A DNA stretch of 50,433 nucleotides. It comes from an uncultured Lachnoanaerobaculum sp. (lineage in GTDB: Bacteria; Bacillota; Clostridia; Lachnospirales; Lachnospiraceae). Below, piece by piece: positions 2 to 10,276 of this stretch; the stretch's first letter is position 1; each line of letters starts with the position of its first letter. A program made the position numbers and the translations under genes. The stretch spans positions 1 to 50,433 of the forward strand of contig CAKAQP010000001.1 in NCBI GenBank assembly GCA_916720285.1. Direction: 5' to 3'. The notes below the pieces were generated by a model. The model worked only from the letters and a program-made list of their open reading frames with translations, was not told the origin of the DNA and did no database searches.

Positions 2-1144
2 CTATTTCAGCACTTCTCTGGCTATAACAACCTTGTGAATCTCTGAAGTACCTTCATATATTTCTGTTATCTTTGCATCTCTATACATTCTCTCCAAAGG
101 ATAGTCTCTCATATATCCATATCCTCCATGTATCTGTAATGCCTTATCTGTTACTTCAACCGCTACCTTTGATGCATTAAACTTTGCAATAGCAGCCTCT
201 TTTGTATATGGCATACCGCTCACTTTAAGGCTTGCAGCTCTATATGTCATCCATCTTGCACACTCAACCTTTGTAGCCATCTCCGCAAGATACCATTGCA
301 AGCCCTGCAATGAGGAAATAGGTCTGCCAAATTGTACTCTTTCTTTTGTGTACTTTATGCTTTCATCCAATGCACCTGCCGCAATACCCACAGCCTGCGC
401 CGCAATTCCTATTCTTGCACCGTCAAGTGCAGTCATTGCAATTTTAAATCCCTTACCGAGCGGTCCTATAAGATTATCCTTTGGAACTCTGCAATTATCA
501 AATATAAGCTCCGCTGTCTCTGATCCGTGAAGTCCCATCTTATCTTCTATCTTACCTATTGAAAATCCGGGTGTACCACGCTCTACCAATATACAGCTTA
601 GTCCCTTAGTCTTTAACTCCGGTGAGGTAAGAGCAAATACCAATACATATTTTGCCAATCCTCCACCTGTTATAAAACATTTTGTACCGTTTAGTACATA
701 TTCCTGTGTTTTCTCATCAAATATAGCTGTTGTTCTTGCACTTCCTGCATCAGATCCGGCATTCGGCTCGGTGAGGGCAAATGCCCCCAACTCGCCTCCT
801 GCACATACTACCGGCAAATATTTTTGCTTTTGTTCTTCAGTACCGAATTTTTCGATTACCGAAGCAAATATAGTATGTATTGAAAGTGTAGCTGCAGTAG
901 AACCGCAGTATTTAGCTATTTCTTCCACAGCAATTATCTTTTCGATATCGCTGCCTCCGCTACCGCCGTATTTTTCCTCAGTTCCTATACCGGTTAATCC
1001 CATCTTGGTCATCTCCAAAAATAAATCTTTTGGAAATTTTCCGCTTCTATCTATTTCTTCAGCTCTTGGTTTTACCACATTTTCACTGAAGTCGGCTACA
1101 GTTTTTTTAAGCATCAACTGTGCTTTGGAAAAATTAAAATCCAT
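2..1144 (-). CDS. Acyl-CoA dehydrogenase (Bcd/AcrC-like; candidate acryloyl-CoA reductase catalytic subunit)
   Basis: 380 aa with ACAD motifs ALTEPNAGSDA, NGTKCFITGG, ERVQFGRPI, QIHGGYGY and IYEGTSEI. GGAGGA RBS. Lies directly downstream of the lyase/CoA-transferase genes. Confidence 0.92.
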   Translation of the reverse strand: MDFNFSKAQLMLKKTVADFSENVVKPRAEEIDRSGKFPKDLFLEMTKMGLTGIGTEEKYGGSGGSDIEKIIAVEEIAKYCGSTAATLSIHTIFASVIEKFGTEEQKQKYLPVVCAGGELGAFALTEPNAGSDAGSARTTAIFDEKTQEYVLNGTKCFITGGGLAKYVLVFALTSPELKTKGLSCILVERGTPGFSIGKIEDKMGLHGSETAELIFDNCRVPKDNLIGPLGKGFKIAMTALDGARIGIAAQAVGIAAGALDESIKYTKERVQFGRPISSLQGLQWYLAEMATKVECARWMTYRAASLKVSGMPYTKEAAIAKFNASKVAVEVTDKALQIHGGYGYMRDYPLERMYRDAKITEIYEGTSEIHKVVIAREVLK

Positions 1145-1157
1145 TTCTTTTCCTCCA

Positions 1158-2726
1158 CTAGATTACGCCTTCTTCTTTTAATTGCTTCAATGTTTCATCA
1201 TCAAAGCCGTAAACCTCTTTATTATGTTGTCCAAGAAGCGGTGCCGGTGCATCTACACTTCCCGGTGTTTCGCTCAGCTTGATAGGACAACCCTGTATAT
1301 ACATATCACCTATTGTAGGATGCTCAACATGTACCATCATCTCTCTTGCCTGGAAATGTGGATGTTCTATTGCTTCCTTCATATCAAGTATCTGTCCGCA
1401 AGGTATTCCGACCTCCTCAAACAGTCTTTCTACTTCTGCCTTGCCTCTTTGTTTTACCCAATCTACAATTATCTCATGTAAACCGTCATTGTAATTTTTA
1501 ATTCTGAGATCATTGGTAGCAAACTTCTCATTTGTAACAAGATCAGGTCTGCCTATTACATCACAGAACAGCTTAAATAGTTTATCTGTACCTACTCCAA
1601 GTGCGATATATCCGTCCTTTGCCTCATATACATTGAATGGTGAAACTGTAGCATCAATATTTCCCTGTCTCTGAGGTATAATTCCTTTAAGAGTTGTATA
1701 GATTATTGCATTTTCAAGCAATGTAAATATAGTATCTGCCATAGCCACATCTACCTGCTGACCTTCACCGGTTACATTTCTTCTGTAAAGCGCCATAAGT
1801 ACACCGACACAAAGATAAATTCCTGTAACATTATCAGCTACCGATACTCCGCATTTTACAGGAGGAGCATCTGTATAGCCTGTAAGATTTATCATACCGC
1901 CAAGAGCCTGTGCAACGATATCATAGCACGGCCTGTTTGAGAAAGGTCCATACTGTCCGAAACCGCTACCTGAAGCATAAATTATTCTTGGATTTATCTT
2001 CTTTAATGTCTCATAGTCAACTTGTAATTTCTTTGTTACTCCGACTCTGAAGTTTTCTACCACTACATCAGCCTCTCTGACAAGGTCATAGAAAATCTCT
2101 CTTCCTTTTTCAGTCTTTAAGTTAAGAGTAACTCCTTTTTTATTTCTGTTTATAAATGCATAAAATCCGCTTTCACCGCTATTATCATCCATTGGAGGCC
2201 AATACCTTGACTGATCACCTGTAAGAGGCTCTATCTTTATAACCTCAGCACCGTTATCTGCTAAAAGAGCGGTACAGAAAGGACCGTTATATGCATGTGT
2301 AAGGTCAAGAACCTTAAGTCCCTCAAGCGCTTTTGCTTTCTTTTTCTCCTTCTTTGCAGGAATAATGTATTCAAAAATACATACTGTTGAAAGAGGAGGA
2401 TCTTCCAAAACATCTATGGAGCTCTCAAACTCGGGCTTCTCAGGGATAACCGCAATCTTAAATGAACGCACTTCAATGATTGCTCTACCGTTTTCCTCAC
2501 CTAAAAGCCTTGCCTTATACTCCATATAATCTCCGGCAAAACATGGTACAAACAGTCTTACTTTTCTTACCTTTGCACATCTGCTTTGATTTCCATAAAC
2601 CTTGGTCATCAATCTGTTTGCGGTATCTTCCATCAAAGTAATAGACCTTGCACCGTTTACAACACCTCCACCGTAGAAAACATCTCTATCTGACATTCTA
2701 TATCTTAATGTAACTTCAGTACTCAT
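1158..2726 (-). CDS. Fusion of an N-terminal Kal/Acl-type hotdog domain (aminoacyl-CoA ammonia-lyase-like) and a family III (CaiB/BaiF) CoA-transferase
   Basis: aa 1-125 contain RMSDRDVFYGGGVVNGAR...PCFAGDYME. A Lys-rich linker KKEKKKAK follows, then LEGLKVLDLTHAYNGPFC, NRNKK, DVVVENFR and a probable catalytic Asp in VSVADNVTG. Confidence 0.85.
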   Translation of the reverse strand: MSTEVTLRYRMSDRDVFYGGGVVNGARSITLMEDTANRLMTKVYGNQSRCAKVRKVRLFVPCFAGDYMEYKARLLGEENGRAIIEVRSFKIAVIPEKPEFESSIDVLEDPPLSTVCIFEYIIPAKKEKKKAKALEGLKVLDLTHAYNGPFCTALLADNGAEVIKIEPLTGDQSRYWPPMDDNSGESGFYAFINRNKKGVTLNLKTEKGREIFYDLVREADVVVENFRVGVTKKLQVDYETLKKINPRIIYASGSGFGQYGPFSNRPCYDIVAQALGGMINLTGYTDAPPVKCGVSVADNVTGIYLCVGVLMALYRRNVTGEGQQVDVAMADTIFTLLENAIIYTTLKGIIPQRQGNIDATVSPFNVYEAKDGYIALGVGTDKLFKLFCDVIGRPDLVTNEKFATNDLRIKNYNDGLHEIIVDWVKQRGKAEVERLFEEVGIPCGQILDMKEAIEHPHFQAREMMVHVEHPTIGDMYIQGCPIKLSETPGSVDAPAPLLGQHNKEVYGFDDETLKQLKEEGVI

Positions 2727-2737
2727 ATTACCCCCTA

Positions 2738-3193
2738 TTAAAGTTCAAGTTCTCTCCAAGGGTCAATAACTTCACCACTTGGCTGATTTCCACGTTGTAA
2801 TTCTTTCTTTACTACAAGTACTACAGTACCTTCAGTAATCAATTTTGGAGGATCGAAATAATACATATCTCCCGGATTAGCATCTTTGATACCCATTCTA
2901 TATGCAGGAGTTGCAACTTTATAAGTGCTTATTCTACATGTTCTTGATGTATTTCCCACCTTTAGCATCTCTGCTCTGAAATTAAGTTGATCACCTACAT
3001 ATGCATCTTCATACAGCTCAACATCCGTATATCCAAGGCACAAAGATTCATCACCGTCATTTAATATCATCAACTCTGTTTCAACATCACCGATAAAGTC
3101 AAACTGTCTCCCAAACGGTATTTTTCCGTCAACATTATTTGCATCGGCAGTTGTCATATTATAATTTAATTCCGCTACTTTTCTAACACTCAT
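2738..3193 (-). CDS. Beta-alanyl-CoA/3-aminobutyryl-CoA ammonia-lyase-like hotdog protein
   Basis: 151 aa with GDVETELM..NDGDESL, VGD, VGNTSR and C-terminal LQRG, which resemble Acl/Kal. GAGGTG RBS. Confidence 0.8.
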   Translation of the reverse strand: MSVRKVAELNYNMTTADANNVDGKIPFGRQFDFIGDVETELMILNDGDESLCLGYTDVELYEDAYVGDQLNFRAEMLKVGNTSRTCRISTYKVATPAYRMGIKDANPGDMYYFDPPKLITEGTVVLVVKKELQRGNQPSGEVIDPWRELEL

Positions 3194-3216
3194 TTTACAC
3201 CTCTGTTCTACTGTAA

Positions 3217-3245
3217 TGTTGGGGCCAAAATATTTGACCCCAACA
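3217..3245 (-). other. Intergenic RNA hairpin without U-tract
   Basis: Minus strand TGTTGGGGTCAAA-TAT-TTTGGCCCCAACA, 13-bp stem with one G-U pair. Confidence 0.6.
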
Positions 3246-3256
3246 CTTAAATCATA

Positions 3257-4513
3257 TTATTGAGCATCACACTTTAATACTGCATTCAAAAGTACGCTGG
3301 CACCCTTTGTACACTGCTCAACCGGAGTAAACTCCTCTTCACAATGAGAATGTCCGTCCTTTGAAGGTACAAATATCATTGTAGTAGGCATCATATAGCT
3401 TACAAACTGTGCATCATGTCCCGCACCTGAGTTGATTCTTTGATTTGAATATCCGAGCTCATTTACAGCCTCTGTTACATAACCTATAAGCTTCTCATCA
3501 TAGTAAACTGTATCTCTTGACCATGCTCTCTCATAACCTGTAGTACAGCCTACTATTTCCTTCGGTATATTCTTTATTACTTCAACAACCTGCTCTATAA
3601 CCTTAGGATCCTCATGTCTTGCATCTATTGAGAACTCTACAAAATCAGGAATAACTGTATGTACATTTGGATGACATACTATCTCACCTGTTGTATATAC
3701 GAGTGCCTTGTCAAGCTTATCAAGCTCATCATGAAGATACTGTAAAAGCTTTGCAGCTGCATATAATGCATCTTTTCTATATGGCATAGGAGTTGTTCCT
3801 GCATGATCTGACTGTCCGAACGCTTTGATTCTGTAGTTTATCATTCCAAGAACACAGGTAACTATTCCGATATCATTCTTTGCAGCCTCAAGGATAGGTC
3901 CCTGCTCAATATGAAGCTCGAACATTGCCTTATAATCCTTAGGATTTAATCTGTTTGCTACATCTCCCTTATAGCCGCTTGCTTCAAGGGCCTCTTTAAA
4001 TGTCTTATTCTTATCAAGAACTGAAGTTGATGCAAGCATATCCTCATGCTTAAACTTCTTTCCAATCTCTTCCGGTAAGTAATCATTACAGATAACTCCT
4101 GATGACATCATAGCTGGTGGATATAAAGATCCTTCCTCATTTGTCCAAATCATTGCTACGAGATTGTGCTTATGAGGTATCTTTTGTTCTGCAACAGACT
4201 CCAAAACTTCCATAGCTCCCATTACACCTAAAATACCGTCATAGTTTCCACCATTTCTTACCGAATCCGAATGTGAAGCCATAACAATTGCCGGAAGTGT
4301 AGGATCACTACCCTCTAATGTTGCATACATATTTGCCATATCATCGGTCTTAACCTTTGCACCGATAGCTTCCATTCTTTTCTTGAATTCAGCTCTTGCC
4401 ATTAGATTTTCTTTTGAAAGAGAATATCTCGTGATACCGCCATGTCCTGCATCACCAAACTGACTCATGGTTTTAATCTTATCTGCCATTCTATCTTCGC
4501 TACACTTATACAT
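3257..4513 (-). CDS. M20-family Zn amidohydrolase; beta-ureidopropionase (N-carbamoyl-beta-alanine amidohydrolase, PydC-like)
   Basis: Motifs SHSDSV, GGNYDG, NEEG, ELHIEQG, HAGTT and SGAGHDA. Follows the dihydropyrimidinase gene. Confidence 0.88.
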   Translation of the reverse strand: MYKCSEDRMADKIKTMSQFGDAGHGGITRYSLSKENLMARAEFKKRMEAIGAKVKTDDMANMYATLEGSDPTLPAIVMASHSDSVRNGGNYDGILGVMGAMEVLESVAEQKIPHKHNLVAMIWTNEEGSLYPPAMMSSGVICNDYLPEEIGKKFKHEDMLASTSVLDKNKTFKEALEASGYKGDVANRLNPKDYKAMFELHIEQGPILEAAKNDIGIVTCVLGMINYRIKAFGQSDHAGTTPMPYRKDALYAAAKLLQYLHDELDKLDKALVYTTGEIVCHPNVHTVIPDFVEFSIDARHEDPKVIEQVVEVIKNIPKEIVGCTTGYERAWSRDTVYYDEKLIGYVTEAVNELGYSNQRINSGAGHDAQFVSYMMPTTMIFVPSKDGHSHCEEEFTPVEQCTKGASVLLNAVLKCDAQ

Positions 4514-4607: not shown

Positions 4608-5978
4608 TTAACTTCTAGGTACTCTCTTTACGAATTTACCCATTCCCGGCTTTCCAACGAAATCTCCGTTATCATAGACAAGCTGTCCTCTGAGGAATGT
4701 CTTTACAGGATATCCGTGAAGCTTCTTTCCTTCCCATATAGTATGGTCATAGTCTGAATGCATATTATTTATACTTATGGTAAAATCCTTATCCCTATCA
4801 TAGATTACTATATCCGCATCATTTCCTACTCTGACTCCGCCTTTCTTATCACATCCGAATATTCTTGCAGGATTTGTTGAGCAAAGAGCCACAGCCTGTG
4901 AGAATGTGATCTTACCTGAATTCGCAGCATCAAGCATATATGGATACATATTTTCCACACCTGCACATCCGTTTGGAATCTTTGTAAAGTCATCTATACC
5001 CCAGTCCTTTTCATAGCTCTGGAACGGGCAGTGATCTGTCGCTACTACATCGATCTGATTTTTCTTGATTGCTTCCCAAAGAGCCTGTCTGCTTTCTTCT
5101 CCTTTTATAGGAGGTGAACATACAAAGTTTCTTCCGTCTTCTCTCTTATATACCTCACATGTGAACTCAAGATACTGTGGGCAGGTCTCAACATAAATAG
5201 GAACGCCCTCTTTCTTACCTTCTATACATGCTTCAAGTCCTTCCTTGTCAGCCATATGAACAATGTAGAGCGGTGCATCCAAATGCTTACACCAATGCAG
5301 AGCTCTTCTGTCAGCTTCAGCTTCAACAAACTCCTGACGTGCCAGATAGTGGTACCAAGGGCTCAAATTGCCTTCTTTTTTGAACTTAGCTTCAAAATAA
5401 TCTATCATATCGGAATTCTCTGCATGAACATTTACCAATGCTCCGAGTTCCTTTGCTCTAAGAAGCAAAGTTGCAAACATTCCGTCATCTACCATCATTC
5501 CGGCTTTTTTGTATACCATGAAGCATTTGTAAGATGTAATACCTTCTTTAACCGCTTCTTCCATTTCTTCAAGTATCTGACCATCATTGAAATCGGTAAT
5601 AATACAATGTGATGCCCAGTCTACACAGGCTTCTTTTTCAAGTATGGCTTTTTTTGAATTTACCAAATCCATAATAGTGCCACCTTTTCTCTGAACCGGA
5701 TAATCAAATATTGTAGTAACTCCTCCACAGGCTGCAGCTCTGGTACCTGAAAGGTAACTGTCCGCAGATATGGTTCCTCCAAAAGGCATAGCCAAATGAG
5801 TATGTACATCCAATGCTCCCGGAAGCACAAGCTTACCTGTAGCATCCACTACTTCTTTTGCCTCCATGTCAAGATTCAGACCCATCTCCACGATTTTTCC
5901 GTCTTTTACCCCTACATCACATGGGAACATATCCGTTGCTGTAACTACCACACCACCTTTAATAATTAAATCTAACAT
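4608..5978 (-). CDS. hydA: Dihydropyrimidinase
   Basis: Amidohydrolase motifs PGALDVHTH, AACGGVTT, VHAEN, VHM, ETCPQYL, SPP, ATDHCPF and IPNG. Confidence 0.93.
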   Translation of the reverse strand: MLDLIIKGGVVVTATDMFPCDVGVKDGKIVEMGLNLDMEAKEVVDATGKLVLPGALDVHTHLAMPFGGTISADSYLSGTRAAACGGVTTIFDYPVQRKGGTIMDLVNSKKAILEKEACVDWASHCIITDFNDGQILEEMEEAVKEGITSYKCFMVYKKAGMMVDDGMFATLLLRAKELGALVNVHAENSDMIDYFEAKFKKEGNLSPWYHYLARQEFVEAEADRRALHWCKHLDAPLYIVHMADKEGLEACIEGKKEGVPIYVETCPQYLEFTCEVYKREDGRNFVCSPPIKGEESRQALWEAIKKNQIDVVATDHCPFQSYEKDWGIDDFTKIPNGCAGVENMYPYMLDAANSGKITFSQAVALCSTNPARIFGCDKKGGVRVGNDADIVIYDRDKDFTISINNMHSDYDHTIWEGKKLHGYPVKTFLRGQLVYDNGDFVGKPGMGKFVKRVPRS

Positions 5979-5998: not shown

Positions 5999-7261
5999 TT
6001 ATAGATAACTATTAGTTTCCTTTAAATTAATTGTATGATTATCATTCTTATCCTTATATACAAGTTTACCCGGTGTTATACACTGCATTACCGGACAAAC
6101 ATTTAAGCAAAGATGACATCCTACACATTTATCTTCATTTATTGTAGGAACTCTGGTTGCATAATCATATTCAATAGCCTGATGTGCCGCATCAAAGCAT
6201 GATACATAGCATCTTCCACATCCGACACATTTTTCTTTATCGATCTGAACCAGGATCTTATATGATCTATCCAAATCATCAGCACCAACAATATTTCCTA
6301 CGGCGGTACCCACTATATCCTGAAGTTTATTTATTCCGTAATCATTCATATAATGTGATATACCGCTTATCATATCTTCAACAATTCTATATCCATATTG
6401 CATTACTGCAGTTGTTACCTGAAGATTTGATGCACCAAGCATCAAAAATTCCAAGCAGTCTCTCCAGGTTTCTATACCACCCATTCCGGTTATCGGAACT
6501 TTGCTTACAATAGGATCATGCATTAAGTCTGATATAAATCTGAGTGCAATAGGTTTTACAGCCGCTCCGGAATATCCTGATATTGCAGATTTTCCGTTTA
6601 CAACAGGCATACCTGTTCTAAGATTTATATCAAGGTTTGTGATAGATTTTACTGTATTTATGGCAGCTATTCCTTTTGCACCGCCTTCTATAGCTGCTCT
6701 TGCAGGAATTTCCATATTTCCAAGGTTTGGTGTCATCTTTGCTATTATCGGTAATTTTGTGCTTGAAGAAGCCACTTCACAATAATGCTTTACCAAATCA
6801 GGATTTTGTCCTACATCAGAGCCCATAGTTGATGATGTCATCTGCGGACATGAGAAATTACATTCAATCATATCCGCTCCGGCCTTTTCAGACTCTTTTG
6901 CAAGTATCGCCCACTCATCATCGCTTGCGCCCATGATACTTGAAACTATCACTTTATTCGGAAAGTCCTTCTTTAATTGCCTGATAAACTCAAAGTTTAC
7001 TTCATTCGGCTTGTCTGAAGTCATCTCCATATTCTTAAATCCGGTCCAAGGTGTTCCCTCTTTTGAAGCTATATCAAATCTTGGTGAACATTCATTTGGT
7101 ATAAAAACGCTTATTGTTTTATAAAAAATACCACCCCAACCGGCTCTCAGTGCCTTAGCACACATTTCATAATTACTGCCTACAGGTGAAGAAGATAGAA
7201 AAAAAGGATTCTCACAATCAACACCTAAAAAATTTATTGATAAATCTTTTTTCAAAGCCAT
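5999..7261 (-). CDS. preA: NAD-dependent dihydropyrimidine dehydrogenase subunit PreA
   Basis: FMN barrel with [19 protein letters not shown] and GYSGAAVKP, plus a C-terminal 2x[4Fe-4S] domain (CVGCGRC...C, CVGCHLC...CP). Confidence 0.95.
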
Positions 7262-7271
7262 ATTAATCTCC

Positions 7272-8480
7272 TCACCTTATATAATCTAATATTTGGTAAG
7301 CTGCTTCTTTTCCTTCATGAACAGACTCTACCACTGTTATACCGACACCATGTAATGCATCACCACCGGTAAATACTCCATTACCCGCAACAAAACTCTT
7401 ATAGTCTTCAACCTGATCCTGTCCTATTGCAAATACGACCATATCTGCCTTAAGTGTCATCTCATTATCATCTTTCATTCCCTTTGCGACAAGAGATGTT
7501 ACATGACCGTTTTCTCCACAAATCTTTTCAGGTGCAAATCCTGTGTAAATAGGGATACCCATCTCTCTTACAAAAGAAATCTCTTCAATATTTGCAGGTG
7601 CTTCTTCTATAGTTCTTCTATAGCAGATACATGCTTTTTCTGCACCCAACTGTCTTGCTGTTGTAGCACAATCCATTGCTACATCACCGCCTCCGATTAC
7701 GATTACTCTTTCCGGAAGTTCCTTTATCTCACCTGTTCTTGCCTTAAACAAAAACTCGATTGCCGACTCAACACCCTTAAGATCGCTACCTTCTATATCT
7801 ACTTTCTTTGAATTCCAAAGACCAACTCCGACAAATACAGCGTCATACTCACTCTTAAGTTTAGGAATGTCTTCAAATTTAATTTCCTTACCGAATTCAA
7901 ACTTTACTCCCAACTCCTTTATAAGTTCTATATCAAAATCCACAACACGGTCAGGAAGTCTTGTAGGTGTGATTCCATATCTCAAAACTCCACCTGCCTT
8001 AGCCTGTTTTTCAAAAATTGTTGTATCCACTCCCGCAAGTGCGAGCTCTCTTGCGCAAGCAAGTGATGCAGGTCCGGCACCTATCAGTGCTACCTTCTTT
8101 CCGATCTTTTCTCCGGCACTGACAAATTTTGCCGACATAGCCTGTTCTTCTTCAACCAGATATCTTTGTATTTTACCGATCTGTATAGGCTTATCTATTC
8201 CACATCTACTACATTCTTCTTCACACATTCTGTCATAAGGACATACCCAGGCACATGAACCACCTAAAGGATTGTTCTCTCTTATTGTCTCTGCGGCACC
8301 CTTTATGTTCTTAAATCTCAGTGAGCGAATGAACTTAGCCGGATCTGTCCCTGCAGGACAGCCCTTAGAACAAGGTGCATCTTCACATAGAAGACACCTG
8401 GATGCTTCCTCCATGGCAAGTCTGTAATTAAAGCCTTCCGACTTCTCCATGCCATATGCCAATTTTAAAATTTTGCTCAT
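7272..8480 (-). CDS. preT: Dihydropyrimidine dehydrogenase subunit PreT (GltD-like flavoprotein)
   Basis: [36 protein letters not shown] and GGGDVAMD. Adjacent to preA. Confidence 0.93.
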
Positions 8481-8506: not shown

Positions 8507-9016
8507 TTAATCCTCTAAAAATTTAGCAATGACCCAGTCTTTTTTATCGGTCTTCTTGAAAAACTTTGCTAATATAAATCTACCCAGATAATCTGATGCG
8601 AGCCCAACGATATTTCCCAGGATAAAGCAAATAATCAACATCTTCCAATTACCACCTGATGCAAAAGCACTAAAGCCGCCCATAAATGTGCAAGTTGCAA
8701 ATCTGGTCAAATCACAATGTGTGATATAGATGATAACTCCACTGAAAATTCCTGTTATCAATCCGTTAAACCATAGACTTCCGTTTACATTTACACATAG
8801 CCAAATGATTGTACATCCGATAAAAATACCTGCGATATTGCTGCATAACGATCTGATAAAACCGTTTTTTCCACATCCTGCTGCATAATAAGATGTACAT
8901 CCTGCAAAGCCTACCCACGTTGCTATCAGCGGACCGGCAAACATAGCCGAAATATATGTCCATAGACCACATACAATTATGTTTGATATGGTATTTGATA
9001 TAATAAATCCCGCCAT
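8507..9016 (-). CDS. DUF1097 (YcdZ-like) membrane protein
   Basis: 169 aa, multi-TM, with WVGFAGCTSYYA, SNIAG and FMGGFSAFA. AAGGAGG RBS. Confidence 0.75.
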   Translation of the reverse strand: MAGFIISNTISNIIVCGLWTYISAMFAGPLIATWVGFAGCTSYYAAGCGKNGFIRSLCSNIAGIFIGCTIIWLCVNVNGSLWFNGLITGIFSGVIIYITHCDLTRFATCTFMGGFSAFASGGNWKMLIICFILGNIVGLASDYLGRFILAKFFKKTDKKDWVIAKFLED

Positions 9017-9418: not shown

Positions 9419-10276
9419 TTAGTTTCTCGGTTTTACAGGTACTATTATCTTTACAATATGCTGCTCGGTATTTGGCAAATCTACCGGTGAAAGCATAAAT
9501 CTTTCTGTTACAGGCCCGTCCACCATCAGCTCATTTTCTTCTATCCATCTTTTCAAAGAAATATATGTATGCACTATATCACTGTAATCACCGACATATA
9601 TAGCATTTGCGGCAAGAAAATTTCCAAATTTCTTCACTTCAGCATCTTTGATATCATTTTCCACCACAATGGAAAACTCTACCTCACAATCCCTGTGAAT
9701 GAATTGTCCAAACATTTCCGTATGATAAGACACTAGAATATCACCCTGGATATTCAGATTTCTTTCTTTTGCAGACTCTATAATATCAATCCATTTTTCA
9801 AGACTGACTTTTTCGTTCTTATAAGACTGCATCATGGTAGTTTTGCCAAATACATATACTTCTCTTTGCTTTTCAAGCTTAAATGAACTTTCTACATTGT
9901 AGTTATTACTGTTTTCAAGTATTCTTTGCGCAGATTCAAGCTTATTCTTTAGTGTAGCGGCTTCTTCATACTTTTTATTCAGCTCAATAATTTCATCTTT
10001 TATGGAGTTTTGTTTTTTTGTCACTATAAGTTCTATCTTTTGAATATCATCTTCTTTTAATATATTCCTAACTTCTTCCAGAGAAAATCCCAAATATCTG
10101 AGTCTCTTTATTATAAAAAGCCGTACCATTTGGTCATGACTGTAATATCTGTAATTATTGTTTTCCTGTCTGATACTTGGAACCATTACATTTATTTTAT
10201 CGTAATATCTTAAAGTCTTTATAGGAATATTACATATTTCCGATACTCTCCCAATAGAATAATATTTGTCTTTCAA
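9419..10276 (-). CDS. MerR-family regulator with C-terminal GyrI-like effector domain (BltR/BmrR type)
   Basis: YYSIGRVSEICNIPIKTLRYYD, NNYRYY, LRYLGFSLEEV, a coiled coil, and C-terminal YVGDY..I..TY..L..WIEEN. TTG start with GGAGGG RBS. Confidence 0.9.
   Translation of the reverse strand: MKDKYYSIGRVSEICNIPIKTLRYYDKINVMVPSIRQENNNYRYYSHDQMVRLFIIKRLRYLGFSLEEVRNILKEDDIQKIELIVTKKQNSIKDEIIELNKKYEEAATLKNKLESAQRILENSNNYNVESSFKLEKQREVYVFGKTTMMQSYKNEKVSLEKWIDIIESAKERNLNIQGDILVSYHTEMFGQFIHRDCEVEFSIVVENDIKDAEVKKFGNFLAANAIYVGDYSDIVHTYISLKRWIEENELMVDGPVTERFMLSPVDLPNTEQHIVKIIVPVKPRN

Follow-up and report, generated by a model that had tools for sequence, protein, structure and literature searches.

A divided pair of Acl/Kal-family hotdog domains in a pyrimidine-degradation operon of Lachnoanaerobaculum: a probable heteromeric beta-aminoacyl-CoA ammonia lyase

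Two hotdog domains in one gene run

The 50,433-nucleotide stretch of DNA analysed here (the window; contig CAKAQP010000001.1 of assembly GCA_916720285.1, uncultured Lachnoanaerobaculum sp.) carries on its minus strand a single run of genes for a MerR-type regulator, a DUF1097 protein, PreT, PreA, dihydropyrimidinase, an amidohydrolase, a stand-alone hotdog protein of 151 amino acids (subunit A, 2738..3193), a 522-amino acid protein (1158-2726) and AcrC. The 522-residue protein is a fusion, in which a 125-residue N-terminal hotdog domain (subunit B, 2352..2726) precedes a Lys-rich linker and a family III CoA-transferase domain (1158..2351). A and B, which probably form the two halves of one beta-aminoacyl-CoA ammonia lyase, are the subject of this report. 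The stop codon of A is separated from the start of B by 11 nt (2727..2737) containing a GGGGG ribosome-binding site, and the two genes are not in frame. The transferase domain (PF02515, residues 134-502) scores 441 bits, above the cut-off and over the whole model length, and is 48% identical to a transferase adjoining a canonical Acl gene; given the gene context, its predicted substrate is beta-alanine. The closest named locus belongs to Lachnoanaerobaculum and encodes an A protein 100% identical to that of the window.

Both A and B match Acl2 of Clostridium propionicum (PDB 4MTU; E-values of 1e-16 and 2e-7, respectively), share its hotdog fold and are also homologous to Kal, the 3-aminobutyryl-CoA ammonia lyase of lysine fermentation. 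A is 34% and B 25% identical to a relative which is itself 96% identical to Acl2; the two are 24% identical to each other and are aligned by hhalign at 98%, with no gaps over the first 90 residues. Their matches to the Kal model NF052388 (62.5 and 50.1 bits) fall far below its equivalog threshold of 160 bits, and their neighbours are pyrimidine and acryloyl-CoA genes rather than the Kce of a lysine-fermentation context. A true Kal (196 bits), adjoining Kce, is encoded on another contig (C5) of the same genome. Similarity to YciA/ACOT-type thioesterases is only remote (E-value 1e-4), and neither domain reproduces their register of an Asn, an HGG loop and a helix Asp: B has Tyr, NGA and an Asp one residue later, whereas A has Asn/Asp but PFG. 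Judged by sequence, A and B are paralogous hotdog domains of the Acl/Kal family.

Division of conserved residues between A and B

We compared alignment columns among 86 canonical Acl/Kal sequences (drawn from the best 150 of 701 matches, with two more from the loci), 46 A and 46 B sequences, and counted invariance over 67 A/B pairs, 44 from loci and 23 from fusions. Residues are numbered as in Acl2 unless A or B numbering is stated. An earlier note on this DNA had proposed that the two domains have lost complementary motifs, and the four motifs it quoted all occur as written. RMSDRDVFYGGGVVNGAR spans residues 10-27 of B, within the loop and helix N-terminus that this domain has kept (residues 8-27; 2646..2705, minus strand), and EDTANRLMTKVYGNQSR forms its degenerate helix end, in which D35 is kept (residues 33-49; 2580..2630, minus strand). 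In A, MTTADANNVDGKIPFGR is the degenerate loop (residues 13-29; 3107..3157, minus strand), and GDVETELMILNDGDESL (residues 35-51), extended to a downstream Tyr, is the half-site that is kept, with its helix-end and beta2 acids (residues 35-55; 3029..3091, minus strand).

Alignment with the Acl2/Kal-family sequences bears out the complementary loss, neither domain holding all of the conserved residues. R9, R11, Y19, G21, G26 and P62 are kept in B only, T38, E39, D45, D47, E48, L50, Y54, G79 and S82 in A only, and D16, D35, G66 and D67 in both; of the other conserved columns, six have been lost from both and eight are mixed. The divided positions are strongly conserved among canonical sequences, both in the loop kept by B (Y19, 93%; G26, 90%) and in the region kept by A (T38, 95%; E39, 94%; D47, 98%; L50, 97%; Y54, 94%). 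All 67 B sequences retain R8, R10, D15, Y18, N24 and G25 (B numbering), and all 67 A sequences retain D36, T39, E40, D46, D48, E49, L51 and Y55 (A numbering; 84-100% conserved in canonical sequences). Where residues were lost, the replacements are consistent: in A, with the loop register taken from hhalign, N25 has become Pro and G26 has become Val, Phe or Ile, each in 62/67 sequences, and Y19 is Asn, Asp, Ser or Thr, whereas in B E39 is replaced by Arg (R38 in B numbering, 64/67) and D47 by Asn (N46, 66/67). The GNTSR strand-turn motif is kept in A and in canonical sequences and lost from B. The two sets, Y19, N/D25 and G26 on the one hand and T38, E39 and D47 on the other, never occur in one A or B chain, and every pair holds both.

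The division is less absolute than first described. B has indeed kept the first motif, but its second is partly kept as well, since D35, invariant in canonical sequences and in all 67 A sequences, persists in 63/67 B sequences (D34 in B numbering); A has kept the helix-end acids, but also D16 of the first motif, in 63/67 cases. Both domains are under purifying selection, with ratios of nonsynonymous to synonymous substitution rates of 0-0.04 for A in five of six comparisons with close relatives and 0.01-0.09 for B. Taken as a sequence signature, the pattern is that of neither chance nor decay.

Linkage, fusion and descent of the pair

A and B were always found together. The counts that follow include related genomes, which are not independent, and should be read as patterns rather than statistics. 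A search with A returned 53 genome loci, all of which contain B, directly downstream of A in 50 and upstream across the transferase gene in three. Searches with B in overlapping samples of 301, 401 and 401 genomes yielded 19 B loci in 15 genomes; A lies within 18 of these loci, in the remaining one both genes are truncated by the ends of two contigs, and all 15 genomes hold A. Thus, no genome with only one of the two was found in either direction. Both domains are likewise present in all 80 metagenome loci kept out of 105, mostly near-copies of one lineage. By contrast, canonical enzymes were matched in 75 of 401 genomes, 74 of which had a single match at the threshold used. Among the neighbours in the 53 loci, some of which are short, are a transferase (50), an acyl-CoA dehydrogenase (39) and a pyrimidine gene (32).

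The two domains have also been joined in nature. Of 37 longer homologues, 23 are full-length A-B fusions (270-289 amino acids), ten are fusions of B to a transferase, one is chimeric and three are of other kinds; no A-B-transferase triple fusion was found among these matches. One cluster of A-B fusions recurs on 57 contigs, and five full-length fused A-B reading frames with the same neighbours were recovered from DNA (L112-L114, L159, L179). In the B tree, each kind of fusion requires four changes, at least two of which are forced by well-supported branches. Four other double-hotdog proteins of the Kal family (P0264, P0267, P0268, P0282) carry motifs unrelated to A and B, which suggests repeated internal duplication in this family. 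In three more (P0354, P0356, P0367) a Kal-like domain lies behind one which, going by its motifs, we take to be an AcpS-like phosphopantetheinyl-transferase domain.

The predicted structure of a natural A-B fusion is a packed double hotdog (predicted template modelling score, pTM, 0.90), and both of its domains match the chain of the Agrobacterium protein 2GVH.

Phylogenetically, A and B each form one clade with support of 99-100, and the same ladder is seen in both trees, starting with the G1198 and G1443 pairs, followed by L047/L048, L211 and the derived forms. The earliest A sequences have kept HY and carry QP in place of N25-G26; the earliest B sequences have kept the loop and T38-E39 and carry Asn in place of D47. 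Such stepwise complementary lesions, read from the alignments, are the trace expected after duplication. Both early pairs bear minimal lesions. That of G1443 (L209:17811-18690) adjoins pydC in an operon that also contains, further along, a derived pair, and that of G1198 (L208:8606-9513) lies apart from pathway genes. As living intermediates, the G1198 and G1443 pairs offer a chance to replay the split step by step.

A proposed composite active site and its possible role

Hotdog active sites form at subunit interfaces, and canonical Acl has two equivalent sites per dimer; Acl2 is reportedly a homo-oligomer. More specifically, the helices of hotdog dimers are described in the available part of PMC2698920 as antiparallel, with each site drawing on both subunits. 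We consider it probable that A and B together make up a heteromeric beta-aminoacyl-CoA ammonia lyase in which each A:B pair shares one composite site, as the earlier note had suggested, and this proposal is supported by the two-way co-occurrence, the A-B fusions, the mirrored trees with their intermediates and the double-hotdog model of the fusion. An ancestral homodimer with two symmetric sites would have divided them between two paralogues, now assembled as A:B pairs, probably in an A3B3 hexamer. From B would come the N-terminal loop together with the start of the helix (Y19, N25, G26), for thioester binding and the oxyanion hole, and from A the helix-end and beta2 acids (D35, T38, E39, D45, D47) for proton transfer. 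In the family profile, Y19 aligns with the thioesterase Asn, N25-G26 with HG in the HGG loop, and D35 falls one position past the catalytic Asp, so that the loop of B and the helix end of A may rebuild one complete site. The opposite site, made of the A loop and the B helix end, would be dead, with Pro and a bulky residue at the predicted oxyanion hole and Arg and Asn in place of two acids.

Several observations weigh against this interpretation. The pTM 0.90 model covers the A-B fusion of a relative, as distinct from the window proteins and from homomers, and a first model built from 23 sequences reached a pTM of 0.62 with a domain docking unlike that of any solved chain. Compared with the ACOT7, ACOT12, FatA and TesB-type chains, the fusion model gave no two-domain superposition (Foldseek root-mean-square deviation 15-19 A), only single-domain alignments, and may therefore show a hexamer-forming interface instead of the catalytic dimer. 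The sister grouping of A and B has a support of only 74, and another tree, built without the early forms, places A inside an Acl-like clade. Gene dosage is not always 1:1, the order being A-B-CoA-transferase-A in L021 and L022 and B-CoA-transferase-A-B in L093, and neighbouring pathway enzymes can co-occur and fuse without binding each other. The catalytic roles are assigned by analogy, and a B homodimer would, to judge from the 63/67 B sequences with D35, hold both the loop and this acid.

Unequal subunits of another kind are known from mycobacteria, where HadAB, HadBC and HadBD are, like A and B, separately encoded hotdog subunits, assembled into double-hotdog-like heterodimers with one working site (PMC10949391, available part). 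They fall within the hydratase-2 subfamily; in the same part of that source HadB alone holds the catalytic dyad while its partner binds the substrate, whereas A and B divide the conserved residues between them. An analogous arrangement, with the chemistry left entirely to A and the part of B confined to shaping the pocket, stabilising the fold or tethering the CoA-transferase, is unlikely, even though such a division is documented for the Had proteins, the invariant acids except D35 all lie in A, and it is B to which the transferase has been fused. B keeps, in 67/67 cases, precisely the Y19, N25 and G26 that A has lost, and the earliest lesion of A, NG to QP at the helix N-terminus, should deprive an A-only site of its oxyanion hole.

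The alternative raised in the earlier note, two independent homomeric lyases specialised for beta-alanyl-CoA and 3-aminoisobutyryl-CoA, has a still smaller chance of being correct. The operon does give rise to two beta-amino acids, both genes are conserved, and in some loci the copy numbers differ or there is another acyl-CoA dehydrogenase; but each homodimer would lack a residue block that is 90-98% conserved in canonical enzymes, even the earliest branches show losses that complement each other, no genome with just one of the two was found in either search, and the pair is also present in the 21/53 loci, several short contigs included, without a nearby pyrimidine gene. It may instead be the A:B heteromer that has a wider substrate range. 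Finally, a third reading is very improbable, namely that A is the lyase and B a separate homomeric thioesterase or hydratase that clears acryloyl-CoA (described as toxic in the available part of PMC4029986) by means of its loop and D35. Although these residues come near the minimal YciA-type set, A would then have no loop, the GNTSR motif of A and canonical sequences is missing from B, and 4/67 B sequences have another residue in place of D35.

The earlier note further proposed that the lyase docks onto the CoA-transferase, which is supported only in part. B is indeed fused to the transferase in 8/53 loci, but it is a free protein in the other 45, and tethering therefore appears to be a recurrent add-on rather than the reason for the split. 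Family III CoA-transferases are dimers, and in the window (1158-2726) the joining of a predicted three-fold lyase to such a dimer would imply either a larger assembly or a hexamer lost in the fused lineages.

What the division is for may be gleaned from genomes with both types of enzyme. All five genomes of genus g663 searched carry A and B together with Acl genes, complete or partial, that share 90-100% identity with the close relative of Acl2, as do two further genomes with Acl-type genes, and all seven tested, with one to three canonical Acl-type genes each, still keep A/B in the pyrimidine operon. Elsewhere, canonical Acl-like genes lie within the A/B operon itself (L039:6954-8861, with two identical copies, and L211:8169-9676). 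Pyrimidine genes were absent from the five canonical-only loci examined, compared with 32/53 A/B loci. In L242-L245 (G682, G615, G438, G1229) the canonical Acl-like genes adjoin what we take, from the N-terminal sequences, to be genes of the 2-oxoacid:ferredoxin oxidoreductase type, presumably with an acyl-CoA dehydrogenase in two of them and, in one, after an apparent ornithine-degradation cluster. The retention of A/B beside Acl genes and, in a small sample, the lack of pyrimidine genes at canonical-only loci suggest that A/B does something which homomeric Acl does not. The simplest such role suggested by these data is the use of thymine-derived 3-aminoisobutyryl-CoA, but neutral subfunctionalisation accounts for the split equally well. 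Tentatively, A:B could be a 3-aminoisobutyryl-CoA ammonia lyase not yet described, in which one site was given up so that the other accepts alpha-substituted beta-amino acids, allowing gut and oral anaerobes to produce isobutyrate from thymine by fermentation, in addition to propionate from uracil. If so, the enzyme might also act on alpha-fluoro-beta-alanine from 5-fluorouracil. In four loci (L013, L014, L019, L035) the pair has two acyl-CoA dehydrogenases nearby, one 63-74% and the other 40-46% identical to AcrC; the latter could serve methacrylyl-CoA. A divergent pair (L043:356-8859 and L044) is accompanied by AcrABC, a BCCT transporter and two CoA-transferases of family III. Its locus holds no pyrimidine gene, and pydC has no match in the genome of L043; a betaine-type substrate, such as beta-alanine betaine or dimethylsulfoniopropionate, is possible.

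Among known systems, the closest are Acl1/Acl2 of Clostridium (Anaerotignum) propionicum (PDB 4MTU, 4MZQ), in which a single Acl2 chain holds both half-sites, whereas A and B hold one each, and Kal, of the same family. The double-hotdog thioesterases ACOT7, ACOT12 and 2GVH also have two unequal hotdog domains, in a trimer resembling the YciA-type hexamer, and in ACOT7 the residues on which catalysis relies, Asn24 and Asp213, lie in separate domains; as a rule, a double hotdog retains a single site and accepts bulkier substrates (PMC2698920, available part). However, these are single-chain hydrolases with 10-14% identity, whereas A and B are predicted to eliminate NH3 and are mostly encoded by separate genes. 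The available text of PMC4619459 lists, apart from its own crotonase-type BvaB, no previous beta-aminoacyl-CoA ammonia lyases other than Acl1/Acl2 and Kal; PMC12888040 reports both Kal annotations and pyrimidine degradation in Anaerostipes, not linked to each other. No heteromeric Acl was found in the literature searched, a body of text that excludes most subscription papers, the two primary Acl papers among them; nor did that body yield a paper in which reductive degradation of pyrimidines is connected with acryloyl-CoA and propionate, or any use of the term '3-aminoisobutyryl-CoA'. A/B is real and widespread, and represents a probably heteromeric form of a known enzyme family that has apparently not been described before, following a principle known from other hotdog families.

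Currently, the A and B proteins are unnamed or labelled as Kal, Acl or acyl-CoA hydrolase, and either gene expressed singly is predicted to look dead, the partners probably functioning only as a pair. They represent a natural case in which duplicates have divided the active site of a symmetric homomer, and early intermediates, derived pairs and re-fused forms can all still be found today. The partition may also indicate, without mutagenesis, which residues are catalytic throughout the Acl/Kal family (D47; N25-G26). Acl enzymes serve engineered routes to acryloyl-CoA, with a single-gene lyase used in PMC10266731, where a variant with another substrate range could be useful.

The operon context agrees with the elimination of NH3 from beta-alanyl-CoA, and from gene content A/B probably carries out the deamination in a fermentation of pyrimidines to propionate that is found across gut and oral anaerobes. 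Uracil would be reduced by dihydropyrimidine dehydrogenase, composed of PreA (5999-7261; NF006183, 586 bits versus a cut-off of 335) and a PreT-type subunit (7272-8480; PF14691), and hydrolysed to beta-alanine by the dihydropyrimidinase PydB (4608..5978; TIGR02033, 458 versus 393 bits) and the beta-ureidopropionase-type amidohydrolase PydC (3257..4513; NF006771, 483 versus 399 bits), whose products, judging from the operon, would be beta-alanine and 3-aminoisobutyrate. The family III transferase would then form beta-alanyl-CoA and the A:B lyase acryloyl-CoA, which AcrC (2..1144; NF042972, 702 versus 640 bits), the catalytic subunit of acryloyl-CoA reductase, would reduce with ETF to propionyl-CoA, which in turn would give back its CoA. 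Thymine, if accepted, would proceed through 3-aminoisobutyryl-CoA and methacrylyl-CoA to isobutyrate. In the near-identical locus L001, AcrC is followed by EtfB and EtfA; the window contig ends before that point. Farther upstream, the DUF1097 membrane protein (8507-9016) and the MerR/GyrI-type regulator (9419-10276) recur in A/B loci. All these genes lie on the minus strand, as does a 14-bp hairpin between PydC and A (3216..3246), which has no U-tail (-22.6 kcal/mol, z -4.5, 0/200 shuffles as good). It is possibly a processing or stability element, and the operon halves on either side may attain different mRNA levels.
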